This document shows, one piece after another, positions 3,586-6,450 of a stretch of DNA of 64,000 bases. How positions within the stretch are numbered: the stretch's first letter is position 1; the number at the start of each line of letters is the position of its first letter. The DNA is taken from the sequence record PQ553088; one strand, written 5' to 3'. The notes beneath the pieces were generated by a model. That model saw only the letters and a program-made list of their open reading frames with translations, was not told where the DNA came from and did not search any database. This DNA comes from Escherichia phage OES_C-1. The translations under genes and the position numbers were made by a program.

Positions 3586-3799
3586 ATTTGACTTCCTCAC
3601 CAGTACATAAATCATATTCAACTAAACGAATAGGTTCATGAATGCCATATCCCTGAACAGAAATTTCTGTCGTAGGATAAATTCCACTAATATCACCCAT
3701 GTTCCACGCTTCATTAAATTGCTGTTCGCCTGAATTACTAAACCATTCGGCGAAAGCATTTAGCACATCTTCAGAACCTTCAATAATTATCTTTGTCAT
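3578..3799 (-). CDS. hypothetical protein, 73 aa
   Basis: ATG at 3797-3799 forms TAATG overlap with the stop of the GrcA-like gene. Confidence 0.5.
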   Translation of the reverse strand: MTKIIIEGSEDVLNAFAEWFSNSGEQQFNEAWNMGDISGIYPTTEISVQGYGIHEPIRLVEYDLCTGEEVKYD

Positions 3800-4155
3800 T
3801 ACAGGCTCTCAGTAAAGGTACGAGCGATAACGTCGCGCTGCTGTTCCGGAGTCAGAGAGTTAAAGCGAACTGCATAACCGGATACACGGATGGTCAGCTG
3901 CGGATATTTTTCCGGATGCTTAACTGCATCTTCCAGAGTTTCACGACGCAGAACGTTAACGTTCAGGTGTTGACCACCTTCAATTTTAACTGTAGGCTGT
4001 GTTTCAATTTCACGGGCATGCAAACCATAGAAAATTTCTGGGTCTACAAAAGAGTCCTCTTTAAAGGTTTTAGAAACAATAATTCGTGCTTGAATACCAT
4101 CTTCAAAATAAATAGTACCTTTATGTGTGCCTTCAAGAATTTGATATGCTTTCAT
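3799..4155 (-). CDS. autonomous glycyl-radical cofactor protein (GrcA/YfiD-like)
   Basis: 118 aa; C-terminal half ...[59 protein letters not shown] carries the RVSGYAVRF glycyl-radical motif and matches E. coli YfiD as recalled; this half is GC-richer than the rest. Confidence 0.8.
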
Positions 4156-4161
4156 ATAACC

Positions 4162-4491
4162 TCAATTAGAAAATAAATTTATCCAAGATTGTTCTTTAAT
4201 TAAAAATGGCTCAGAATCATATGCCATTAAACTTTGGGTGATTAGTCCTTTAAAAGGACCATCAATAAATTCCATAGTAAAATATGGAATTTTATTCATT
4301 AACCTTGCATTAGGAGCAGTGCACAAAACTCTGCATCCTTTGAATACACCTTTTTGTAATTTGTATTGCTTGGGATAAAATTCGCTCAAGACGTTGTTAT
4401 TTGCCAAAATTTCAAAATGATTCACCAATTTATTTTTAATAGTTTTTGGCGAAAAATAAAGATATTCGAAAAGTTGCGTATCTGTCATCAT
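4162..4491 (-). CDS. hypothetical protein (vs.7 position)
   Basis: Track ORF 4162..4542; ATG at 4491 gives ATGA overlap with upstream stop; ATG at 4542 also possible. Confidence 0.4.
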   Translation of the reverse strand: MMTDTQLFEYLYFSPKTIKNKLVNHFEILANNNVLSEFYPKQYKLQKGVFKGCRVLCTAPNARLMNKIPYFTMEFIDGPFKGLITQSLMAYDSEPFLIKEQSWINLFSN

Positions 4492-5075
4492 TGCATTCCA
4501 ATTACGAAAAACTGCGGACGAGTAATACCGCCAATGCAGCATTTACTATTACAGCAGTGTTGCACAGTTTCAATATGAATATCGTAAATTTTATCCATAT
4601 CAGGAGATTTAACAGGCTCATCGATTATATACAAAATTCGCGAAAGAGATAAACCTCTGAACTTGCTTCCTTTATTACCGATAAAACTACGGACAGAATC
4701 AGTAAATAAGCGGAATCGAATATCATCACTAGAATAACGAGAAAATTCTTTTTTAATGTGGCCTGCAGAAATTTTAGCGTAAGCTGAAGTATTAGAAAGA
4801 ACAATAACTGTTCCACCGTCATACAGCCAATTAGCAGCAAAGTTAGTCACAGCAGTTGATTTACCGGATTGACGTCCACCGTCTAGTCGAAGTGTGCAAT
4901 ACTGCTTAAGTAAGTCTTCAAATGGTGGGATATATTCGTTTTTACAAATTTCTTCTACTCTAGCATCAGAATGGTGTGTAAAAGCATTCATCAGGGATAG
5001 ATAAGGACCAGTTAAAAATGTTCTCATTTTATTCTCTCTAAATTTGGGCCATTCCATGGCGCATGAATTGTCCAT
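4488..5075 (-). CDS. P-loop (Walker A) protein, function unknown
   Basis: 195 aa; GGRQSGKST motif; alternative in-frame ATGs at 5057 and 5027. Confidence 0.5.
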   Translation of the reverse strand: MDNSCAMEWPKFRENKMRTFLTGPYLSLMNAFTHHSDARVEEICKNEYIPPFEDLLKQYCTLRLDGGRQSGKSTAVTNFAANWLYDGGTVIVLSNTSAYAKISAGHIKKEFSRYSSDDIRFRLFTDSVRSFIGNKGSKFRGLSLSRILYIIDEPVKSPDMDKIYDIHIETVQHCCNSKCCIGGITRPQFFVIGMQ

Positions 5076-5172
5076 TTCTGTATTTACCCATTACCGCACT
5101 TGGGCTCGACCTTATTACAGGTTGGCGGGAATCCCTCATAGAATCATGAGGTCCAGGTTATTCCCATGTTAT
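5076..5172 (-). other. GC-rich structured intergenic element downstream of denV
   Basis: Minus-sense nested inverted repeats GGGAAT...CCTCAT-GATTCT-ATGAGG...ATTCCC; GC content far above the local AT-rich background; no U-tract. Confidence 0.3.
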
Positions 5173-5589
5173 TTAAATGTAAATATTTTTGCCGTAATAC
5201 TTATACCAGTGTGGCTTCATTAAAATTTTTTCATCGAGTCGTTGTTGACTCAACTTAATAGCTGATTTGCATGGATTATAATCATTTTTCCATTCTACTG
5301 GAATATCGCTGATGTCAGGAACTTCAGTATCTTTTATACTGAACCCGCGTTTTAAGCATTCCGTTATAATGTCCGATTGACGCTTTCGCAAAAATTCTAA
5401 CTTATCGTAAAAGAAAGTAACATGACCAGAACCTAAAATAAATTTAGAAGATATTTTAAAATCTTTAGCGCGCTTACCGTTTGCCACATGCTTACGAACT
5501 ATACCAAAAACACGTGGTAATTCACGATACTCAGCCATAAGATGTTGGTCGGTCAGTTCAGAAACAAGTGTTAAATTGATACGAGTCAT
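5173..5589 (-). CDS. denV: endonuclease V (pyrimidine-dimer DNA glycosylase)
   Basis: 138 aa from ATG at 5589 with GGAGGAA upstream; [12 protein letters not shown]...WYKYYGK matches T4 endo V as recalled; track start at 5601 is TTG. Confidence 0.9.
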
Positions 5590-5647
5590 AATTTCCTCCA
5601 AGTAGTTGATGAATGTATAGTATCAAAGTCCTTGGAGGAAGTAAACA

Positions 5648-6450
<803 letters not shown>

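Follow-up and report, generated by a model that had tools for sequence, protein, structure and literature searches.

A conserved pseudoknotted RNA element between denV and vs.8 in Escherichia phage OES_C-1, with related copies beside tRNA genes in other phages

The denV/vs.8 gap of Escherichia phage OES_C-1

The stretch of Escherichia phage OES_C-1 analysed here (sequence record PQ553088, 64,000 nucleotides (nt); hereafter the window) comes from a Tequatrovirus, and its positions 4400-5700 (1301 bases queried) are 100% identical to Escherichia phage OES_C-2. The gene order on the minus strand is e (5926-6414), an internal head protein gene (5648-5944), denV, a gap of 145 nt, vs.8, vs.7 and vs.6. 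A nested-hairpin element rich in GC had been noticed in this gap from the sequence alone (the original prediction), and its nested repeat and GC-rich part are both present on the minus strand at the positions given. Our analysis uncovered a structured element that occupies the gap on the sense (minus) strand of the early denV-vs.8 unit. This element is, with high confidence, the Tequatrovirus copy of a conserved family of pseudoknotted RNAs in phages. As far as we could find in Rfam 15 and in the literature searched, this family of structured non-coding RNA is uncatalogued.

The OES_C-1 version is a shortened form of the fold, composed of P1, an internal loop, P1a, P2, the core and a tail (Table 1), and the GC-rich stretch is GCCAACCUGUAAUAAGGUCGAGCCCAAGUGCGGUAAUGGG, which comes 3' of the 5' hairpin. 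The GC contrast with the surroundings is real but modest, and not sharp as first described (0.46 at 5050-5149 versus 0.32-0.39 in the flanks). The reported absence of a U-tract was confirmed, as the sequence contains no U run and no terminator-like site was seen on the minus strand between 5030 and 5172; an intrinsic terminator was rejected on these grounds. The original prediction had caught the 5' hairpin but had not recognized the GC-rich stretch (5130-5082) as the universally conserved core, and it missed the pseudoknot linking the two and the stand-alone copies in tRNA clusters of unrelated phages.

Distribution and covariation of the core

The 49-nt core was found by BLAST in 1093 of 50,697 phage records, and the carriers were confined to phages of Gammaproteobacteria. 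Conservation across T-even genomes, a question raised with the original prediction, is extensive: the element is present in more than 1000 phage records, and its core (~45 nt) is 86-97% identical between OES_C-1 and phages whose vs.8 coding sequences share ~60% nucleotide and 36-44% amino acid identity. The central 43 nt are 92-95% identical in the unrelated phages Vequintavirus naswa and Pseudomonas phage PsgM04F. Pattern scans covering viral, metagenome and genome collections added a second Vequintavirus type, 46-kb contigs related to PsgM04F, Vibrio phage F88, contigs L046 and L077 (39-43 kb), Escherichia phage EcoPhCCP1 (44 kb), the 90-kb contig L105 and Karam-like T4 relatives. None of 5,426 complete E. 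coli genomes contained the core. A core covariance model (R1) gave a single match in the 64-kb window, at 5130-5082 on the minus strand (70.1 bits, E about 1e-22). True members scored 42-70 bits with this model and chance pattern matches in GC-rich bacterial coding sequence 12-20 bits; the matches in genome contigs and about five in metagenomes fell in the latter range, in GC-rich coding sequence, and were rejected as chance.

The pairs of the proposed helices P2, hairpin a and hairpin b were counted in an alignment of cores from all lineages (A2, 41 distinct sequences). Bases were paired in 93.6% of the cells, against 20-46% in slid controls. The inner pair of P2 occurs as five pair types (AU24/UA7/UG5/CG4/GC1) with 0/41 sequences unpaired, and the middle pair of hairpin b as four Watson-Crick types (CG35/GC2/UA2/AU1). 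Hairpin a (ACCU/AGGU) is invariant in most members; it shows compensatory changes from U-A to A-U in L105 and from A-U to G-C in a second copy carried by the Karam-like L042, two members found without the hairpin-a constraint in the search. The unpaired segments of the core, namely the GURANA loop and the CGA and GGUAA junctions, are nearly invariant, and ~30 nearly invariant nucleotides are concentrated in the junctions and loops of the core.

The second copy in L042 is one of a set of tandem copies in Karam-like phages (L042 5092-5138 on the minus strand, L044 9134-9180 and L099 476-522 on the plus strand; 42-50 bits), each lying ~115 nt after the first and diverged from it, the whole element being duplicated. 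These copies have a shorter 5' hairpin and a CA junction replacing CGA; their hairpins a and b have undergone compensatory changes. Three other records call for comment. A core copy 97.8% identical to that of OES_C-1 lies at 100818-100862 of CP057073.1 (H161), a 137.6-kb replicon filed as a non-mobilizable E. coli plasmid; its size is near that of the Vequintavirus carriers (136-139 kb), and the replicon is probably a phage genome that was deposited under the wrong heading. The element region of Campylobacter phage A116 (L030, marked UNVERIFIED, 59.5 kb) is nearly the same as that of the E. coli phage Vequintavirus naswa, and its host assignment or assembly looks doubtful. A match of 31.8 bits at 3944-3994 (minus strand) of L060, an 8.1-kb contig binned in a Dehalococcoidales metagenome-assembled genome, falls between members and chance and was left undecided.

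The full-length RNA and its pseudoknot

The full-length RNA was analysed by aligning 25 Tevenvirinae elements of type B and of the SonariX type (A3), with a structure that we specified and pairs counted column-wise. In A3, 90.6% of the cells were paired, as compared with 21-42% in slid controls. Pair 19-66 of P1 occurs as GC14/CG10/AU1, pair 73-111 of P2 as CG19/GC6, and pair 148-156 of the 3'-domain hairpin as CG19/UA6. The internal loop of the 5' hairpin also pairs, as a pseudoknot, with a tail segment 8-12 nt beyond P2; this helix is paired in 25/25 sequences, with pair types CG12/UA6/AU5/GC2 (25-122), GC18/CG7 (26-121) and CG25 (24-123). In SonariX-type phages it is the CCUGG of the 5' hairpin that pairs with the tail UCAGG. 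RNAalifold independently recovered the pseudoknot helix on A3 and added a long inner hairpin with a covarying pair (28-64, CG12/AU12/GC1). Many of the surviving pairs are G-U (UG7 and UG10 in P2, GU3 and GU7 in the pseudoknot), that is, A-C mismatches on the other strand, and the structure is therefore specific to the transcribed strand.

A MAFFT alignment of all Tevenvirinae types (A1) placed, for the T4 type, both the 5' P1 strand and the pseudoknot five columns away from their type B counterparts, and because of this misplacement it was left out of the pair counts. It nevertheless revealed compensatory changes among T4-type elements, with P1 as GGGAG/CUCCC in L021 and P1a as CCUUAU/AUAAGG in L085. 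Analogous pseudoknots could be recognized by eye, without statistics, in EcoPhCCP1 (CUCCGG/CCGGAG), in L046 (ACCAA/UUGGU) and in Psg-type copies (CGGAA/UUCCG and CGGUU/AGCCG). Across the family, the loop of the 5' hairpin that enters the pseudoknot is either internal or apical, and its partner strand in the tail comes directly 3' of the core. On this comparative evidence we consider all helices shown to be maintained by compensatory changes, including G-U pairs that are workable only on the minus (sense) strand, and the original claim of an RNA-level structure on that strand is upheld by these changes.

Two further pairings were considered. A terminal stem P0 in the T4 type (UAAAU/AUUUA in the window, AUAAG/CUUAU in T4) is not conserved and is missing in L003, and was rejected. 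RNAalifold also proposed, for type B, that GUAA in the GGUAA junction pairs with the tail sequence UUAC (A3 columns 104-107 with 114-117). This pairing corresponds to GUA/UAC in OES_C-1 (5094-5092 with 5083-5081) and is in competition with the 3' strand of P2. As it never varies, covariation cannot test it, and it does not occur outside Tevenvirinae; the predicted RNA could adopt it as an alternative conformation.

Table 1. Positions, in the window, of the parts of the RNA element and of the two flanking genes
Feature	Position	Strand	Basis or remark
Whole structured RNA module (5' hairpin domain, three-way-junction core, pseudoknot tail, T4-group 3' domain)	5046..5165	-	Alignments, pair counts
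5' hairpin domain	5127..5165	-	Sequence; compensatory changes among T4-type relatives
P1, GGGAAU with AUUCCC	5165-5160 with 5132-5127	-	Part of 5' hairpin
P1 internal loop, AACCUGGA	5159-5152	-	Part of 5' hairpin
P1a, CCUCAU with AUGAGG, loop GAUUCU; G5133 unpaired	5151-5146 with 5139-5134	-	
Pseudoknot 5' strand, CUG inside CCUGG of the P1 internal loop	5154..5156	-	Homologous to the SonariX-type CCUGG
Core	5082..5130	-	Covariance-model match (model R1)
P2 closing stem	5125-5123 with 5090-5088	-	Core
Hairpin a, loop GUAAUA	A5122-U5119 with A5112-U5109	-	Core
Junction CGA; junction GGUAA	5108-5106; 5095-5091	-	Core
Hairpin b, loop CAA, bulged U5098	G5105-C5103 with G5099 and G5097-C5096	-	Core
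Pseudoknot 3' strand, CAG in the tail UAAAUACAGAA	5078..5080	-	Position homologous to the covarying tail of type B/SonariX phages
3' domain, T4-like phages only	5046..5077	-	Conserved in type A, B and SonariX-type elements; absent from non-Tevenvirinae copies
GGA motifs of the 3' domain: AAAUGGACAAUUC; hairpin GCCA-UGGAA-UGGC, then CC	5077-5065; 5060-5048	-	
Variable spacer with weak Shine-Dalgarno-like GAGAG (5038-5034)	5028..5045	-	Spacer 16-26 nt in relatives
denV (endonuclease V)	5173..5589	-	Stop codon 5175-5173, 7 nt upstream of the RNA module
vs.8, 179 amino acids, P-loop protein, phrog_1488	4488..5027	-	Start ATG 5027-5025; annotations of ZN18, ime09 and fPS-65; frame analysis; family scans

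Start codon of vs.8

The original prediction had left the start of vs.8 open between 5075, 5057 and 5027. This ambiguity is real in OES_C-1, as the ATGs at 5075 and 5057 are both in frame with vs.8 and open, and the T4 entry X04567 of the 1980s listed five alternative starts. In relatives, 16-26 nt separate the last conserved hairpin from the ATG of vs.8, and these lengths show no triplet periodicity. Most relatives have the conserved upstream ATGs, which belong to AUGGA motifs, either in another frame or followed by a stop, and in OES_C-1 an in-frame TAA at 5093-5091 blocks any form longer than 195 amino acids. The true start of vs.8 is ATG 5027, as annotated in ZN18, ime09 and fPS-65, because the upstream ATGs fall within the RNA and give no open in-frame extension in most relatives, and because of the TAA at 5093-5091. 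The vs.8 of the T4 reference record (NC_000866, 2254-2913; L029) has 219 amino acids and starts inside the RNA element, while close relatives have 179; it is over-extended.

The spacer and frame analysis supports the non-coding status of the element and speaks against the scenario, named with the original prediction, in which the region is simply the coding N-terminus of the downstream gene. Such a coding region would be an N-terminal extension of vs.8 (219 amino acids in T4, or 195 from ATG 5075) or a small open reading frame (ORF), and it could draw on the two open in-frame ATGs of OES_C-1 and on the long form annotated in the T4 RefSeq record. Set against this are the frame and spacer observations just given, the fact that conservation tracks base pairs and not codons, and the occurrence of the same core far from any vs.8 homologue. 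We therefore consider a coding role very improbable. Short hypothetical ORFs have been called across the element in OES_C-2 (EC2_126/127), Vibrio phage F88 (VPHF88_0273) and PsgM04F (CDS0285); they are probably spurious.

Genomic settings of the element

In the more than 1000 Tevenvirinae genomes, the element always lies immediately upstream of vs.8, whatever gene precedes it. Outside the T4 group it is co-oriented with tRNA genes, inside or beside clusters, in at least seven lineages. The copy of Vequintavirus naswa is in an unannotated gap just before the tRNA cluster, that of PsgM04F is within the cluster, and that of L104 is downstream of the tRNAs. In L077 the element has its own promoter (TAAACA-18-TATAAT) and sits antisense to its neighbours, in a gap of 350 nt flanked by ORFs on the other strand. 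Conservation between L077 and L046 spans more than 200 nt, and the element is thus the 5' part of a longer independent RNA there. In Vequintavirus and EcoPhCCP1 a near-consensus sigma-70 promoter starts directly after the element. In L043, representing 46-kb uncultured phages, it is placed in a cassette bounded by a long stem, both strands of which recur around the neighbouring units. The tRNA-cluster, own-promoter and cassette settings outside the T4 group argue for an autonomous RNA module rather than a leader of a single gene.

Several smaller features were noted around these copies. The cassette features of L043 lie at 1929-1949, 1999-2016, 2120-2140 and 2210-2330. In the cassette that comes next is an unusual tRNA-like RNA, whose acceptor stem is extended and whose variable arm is long; it gave a weak tRNA-Sec match and no ARAGORN call. 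The Psg-type cassette stem GUGCUCUUA was considered as a boxA, a reading that was rejected since sister contigs differ in this sequence (GCCAUUU, GCUAUUU). In the second Vequintavirus type (L051 56-77 and 179-200) the element has a 22-nt motif, CCCWTAGAGGGCTTGAWAGTGC, on either side, and in naswa-type phages (L004) this motif lies upstream of it. Upstream of its early genes, naswa (L004 148-233) has a tandem array of four repeats of 21-22 nt, TAACTGTCCGTGATACGGACAC, which all include a small inverted repeat and which the record annotates only as a repeat_region.

Comparison with known RNAs

A cmscan search against Rfam 15 (4227 models) at E up to 10 returned nothing over the element in the OES_C-1 window, L077 and L043, and a scan of 12 loci at the gathering thresholds returned tRNAs only. 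ARAGORN called three tRNAs in the window, none of them on the element; the other loci likewise gave no tRNA match on it. Literature searches on vs.8/denV, T4 non-coding RNAs and the core sequence gave nothing relevant, and an earlier description elsewhere is possible. The flanking genes vs.8 and denV are not mentioned in two T4 omics papers, and the RegB paper treats the denV Shine-Dalgarno sequence only.

Several classes were rejected on structural grounds. In a hammerhead ribozyme the strands of the three-way junction are CUGANGA, GAA and one H, whereas the element has A, CGA and GGUAA (1, 3 and 5 nt), and no Rfam hammerhead model matches. The hepatitis delta virus (HDV)-like or theta fold is a nested double pseudoknot (P1, P1.1, P2, P3, P4) with a catalytic C in J4/2; the helix order here is P1, P2, Pa, Pb, PK, and no HDV-family Rfam model matches. 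The strand order was also judged not to fit the consensus structure of twister. A riboswitch was rejected since many copies have no downstream ORF (inside tRNA arrays, before a promoter or antisense to neighbours) and since no terminator or alternative pairing sequestering the Shine-Dalgarno sequence was seen on the minus strand at 5030-5172. Two 9-mers that also occur in other RNAs, GUGCGGUAA in E. coli RNase P RNA and CGGUAAUGG in the HDV ribozyme, we take to be coincidence.

Other RNAs resemble the element in part. The modules that dock on the tRNA elbow (the distal platform of T-box stem I, the RNase P specificity domain and the L1 stalk) have a short helix with a purine-rich loop and, just below the loop, a 3'-side bulge ending in GUAA, and two interdigitated pentanucleotide T-loops form a stacking platform. 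The GURANA loop and the GGUAA junction of the element may resemble these features, and the association with tRNA genes would suit tRNA binding. The element differs in that hairpin b is inserted in the "bulge", the loop has only 6 nt, and no T-box or RNase P model matches; we treat the possible resemblance as a lead. Like the orphan phage RNAs of Rfam (such as GOLLD, ROOL, drum and skipping-rope), several of which lie beside phage tRNAs, the element is conserved, structured and a find of comparative genomics; no model of these RNAs matches it, and it is much smaller than GOLLD or ROOL. The species 1/2 RNAs of T4 (rnaC, rnaD) are RNAs of yet unknown function (PMC9697503). They are small, stable, encoded with tRNA genes and subject to tRNA-type processing, and the non-T4 copies of our element sit likewise. 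They are not homologous to it, as R1 finds no second copy in the window, including the tRNA region at 11.8-12.9 kb, and they belong to the tRNA cluster, whereas the T4-like element is ~7 kb away, inside an mRNA.

Put-type RNAs bind the zinc-binding domain of the RNA polymerase beta' subunit and suppress termination in cis. The put RNA of phage HK022 is a phage-encoded, cis-transcribed RNA of ~70 nt located just after the early promoters; it antiterminates through RNA polymerase with no phage protein needed, is strongly constrained through binding a conserved host enzyme, and has its two stem-loops arranged as a V, with a triplex in the minor groove (PMC9378689). Our element consists of a hairpin and a three-way junction closed by a pseudoknot, and has no sequence similarity to put RNA. 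HDV-like theta ribozymes adjoin tRNA genes in phage genomes (PMC10879173). To that extent they and the element are alike, both being compact, pseudoknotted and placed beside phage tRNAs; they differ in that the strand order of the element does not fit a nested double pseudoknot, with no HDV-family match.

Possible function

Our favoured reading of function, which we hold with evenly balanced confidence, is that of a stable, partner-binding non-coding RNA module. In T4-like phages the RNA would be made by read-through of the denV/early transcript and would fold as an autonomous module. In other phages the module would be released from tRNA-cluster transcripts (in one lineage as stem-bounded cassettes) or transcribed from its own promoter. 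The surface formed by the invariant unpaired nucleotides would contact a partner that is conserved in Gammaproteobacteria or in their large phages, the best candidates being a component of the RNA/tRNA-handling machinery or tRNA itself. The RNA would then act as a stable binding, decoy or scaffold RNA, not as a switch for one gene. The T4-like 3' domain with its two GGA motifs may couple the RNA to vs.8 expression; the constant link to vs.8 and this extra domain therefore leave room for an added cis role in T4-like phages. An RNA processing or stability element and a translational operator for vs.8, both proposed originally, are possible as such cis roles, but they are insufficient because the stand-alone copies stay unexplained.

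A bolder and rather unlikely proposal is that the element represents a new class of non-coding RNA in phages, T4 included, whose invariant core of three-way junction and pseudoknot would dock on a universal component of the host RNA machinery. This could be tRNA or a tRNA-processing or -cleaving enzyme, the RNA being a decoy or sponge that would protect the translation supply from tRNA-targeting defences. It could instead be RNA polymerase, and the RNA would then be an antiterminator that needs no protein and serves early operons and tRNA arrays that are not translated.

Several observations weigh against the favoured reading. The minimum free energy of the 161-nt sequence is -32.4 kcal/mol (z = 0.02 versus shuffles), so the folding check proposed originally gives a divided answer: the structure is supported comparatively, but single-sequence stability is ordinary and no better than in shuffled sequences. 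Elsewhere, L046 shows no stability signal and L077 a weak one (z = -1.79). The case for an element not due to chance rests on comparison since thermodynamic stability is unremarkable. In this comparison, most members were gathered with patterns fixing hairpin a and the junctions, so that their invariance is partly built in. The register of P2 varies by lineage, the 5'-side junction being 1, 2 or 4-5 nt and pair 6-43 being unpaired in 15/41 sequences of A2. The pseudoknot has only 3 bp (CUG/CAG) in OES_C-1, and 4 bp in L089. An unrestricted RNAduplex test of the 75 nt upstream versus the tail, against shuffles, was not significant and chose long gapped duplexes; it was replaced by the column-wise counts on the homogeneous alignment A3. 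The constant position upstream of vs.8 in Tevenvirinae resembles that of a cis-regulatory leader, because the element precedes vs.8 whatever the upstream gene. Finally, both the partner and the mode of action in trans are purely what we infer.

An element acting in cis on its own transcript is possible, though on the unlikely side. It could be, in T4-like phages, a structured leader for vs.8 translation or for protection of the message, or else an antiterminator in the nascent RNA. The first would agree with the attachment to vs.8 in all Tevenvirinae, even with the gene ipIV upstream, and could involve host CsrA. A CsrA-binding leader has at least two A(N)GGA motifs, one or more of them presented in a hairpin loop and another overlapping the Shine-Dalgarno sequence. 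The 3' domain carries two conserved motifs of this kind ~20 nt apart, the second in the loop of the GCCA/UGGC hairpin and 16-26 nt before the start codon; neither GGA motif overlaps the Shine-Dalgarno sequence, which lies 16-26 nt downstream. This domain is, moreover, lineage-specific, and the conserved part of the element is the core. A compact pseudoknot could also stop 3' exonucleases or the scanning by RNase E. Where the element follows a promoter or lies in a tRNA cluster, a put-like RNA could ride RNA polymerase and suppress Rho-dependent or intrinsic termination over stretches that are not translated, in agreement with the constant co-orientation with transcription, the placement before or inside long untranslated tRNA arrays, the restriction of carriers to phages of Gammaproteobacteria, and the location directly after a promoter in L077/L046, as in putL (PMC9378689). 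However, the copy of Vequintavirus and EcoPhCCP1 ends a unit and is followed at once by a strong promoter, that of L104 is downstream of the tRNAs, and the stem-bounded cassette of L043, like its tRNA-like neighbour, suggests excision. No terminator was recognisable downstream within the window, and a three-way junction with a pseudoknot is unlike the two stem-loops and triplex of put RNA (PMC9378689).

The ~30 nearly invariant junction and loop nucleotides in a compact pseudoknotted fold are typical of catalytic cores. By analogy with the HDV-like theta ribozymes, which set a precedent next to phage tRNAs (PMC10879173), the element might be a small self-cleaving ribozyme of a new class, cutting polycistronic or tRNA-cluster transcripts, and its location between genes and between tRNAs would fit. 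No Rfam 15 ribozyme model matches at E up to 10 in three lineages, however, the junction strands are unlike hammerhead and the strand order unlike HDV-like ribozymes and twister in our reading of the consensus structures, and the sequence points to no cleavage site, all of which makes a ribozyme quite improbable. A feature acting as DNA (a foreign remnant, a mobile mini-element, or a site of protein binding or recombination) could account for the GC content above the local average, for the indel hot spot at this site where ipIV is present or absent, and for a core common to unrelated phages, which implies horizontal spread. The compensatory changes with their many G-U pairs, which are A-C mismatches on the opposite strand, tell against it, as do the orientation always with transcription, the lack of terminal repeats, target duplications or an associated nuclease gene, and the absence from the 5,426 E. 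coli genomes. We give such a feature hardly any weight. The remnant of foreign DNA suggested originally is at odds with purifying selection stronger than that on vs.8 (86-97% versus ~60% identity) and with pairs kept by compensatory changes.

Significance

The question of stable RNAs beside phage tRNAs dates from the T4 species 1/2 RNAs of the 1970s. The element described here has gone unannotated in T4, the best-studied virulent phage, hidden in the over-extended vs.8 ORF of the reference record. Its fold is common to T4-like, rV5-like, Pseudomonas, Vibrio and mid-size uncultured phages, repeatedly in tRNA clusters, and a fold more conserved than the neighbouring proteins must touch something important and invariant. 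Identifying the predicted partner could explain the extra stable RNAs kept next to phage tRNAs, and could also reveal a new RNA-based mechanism of takeover or anti-defence. On the practical side, the start of vs.8 is fixed, spurious small ORFs are flagged in many phage records, and a covariance model with coordinates is supplied.

Neighbouring genes

Protein searches with vs.8, vs.7 and naswa gp26 returned no function. The boundary between denV and the element (window 5166-5172) is an indel hot spot: ipIV (474 nt) is inserted there in many T4-like phages (for example ime09, L002 2038-2511) and is absent from OES_C-1 and T4. Because this insertion separates denV from the element, the element travels with vs.8 and not with denV. 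Further along the minus strand, vs.6 (window 3799-4155) is annotated in relatives as a GrcA-type autonomous glycyl-radical cofactor, a protein that serves as a spare part for pyruvate formate-lyase damaged by oxygen.

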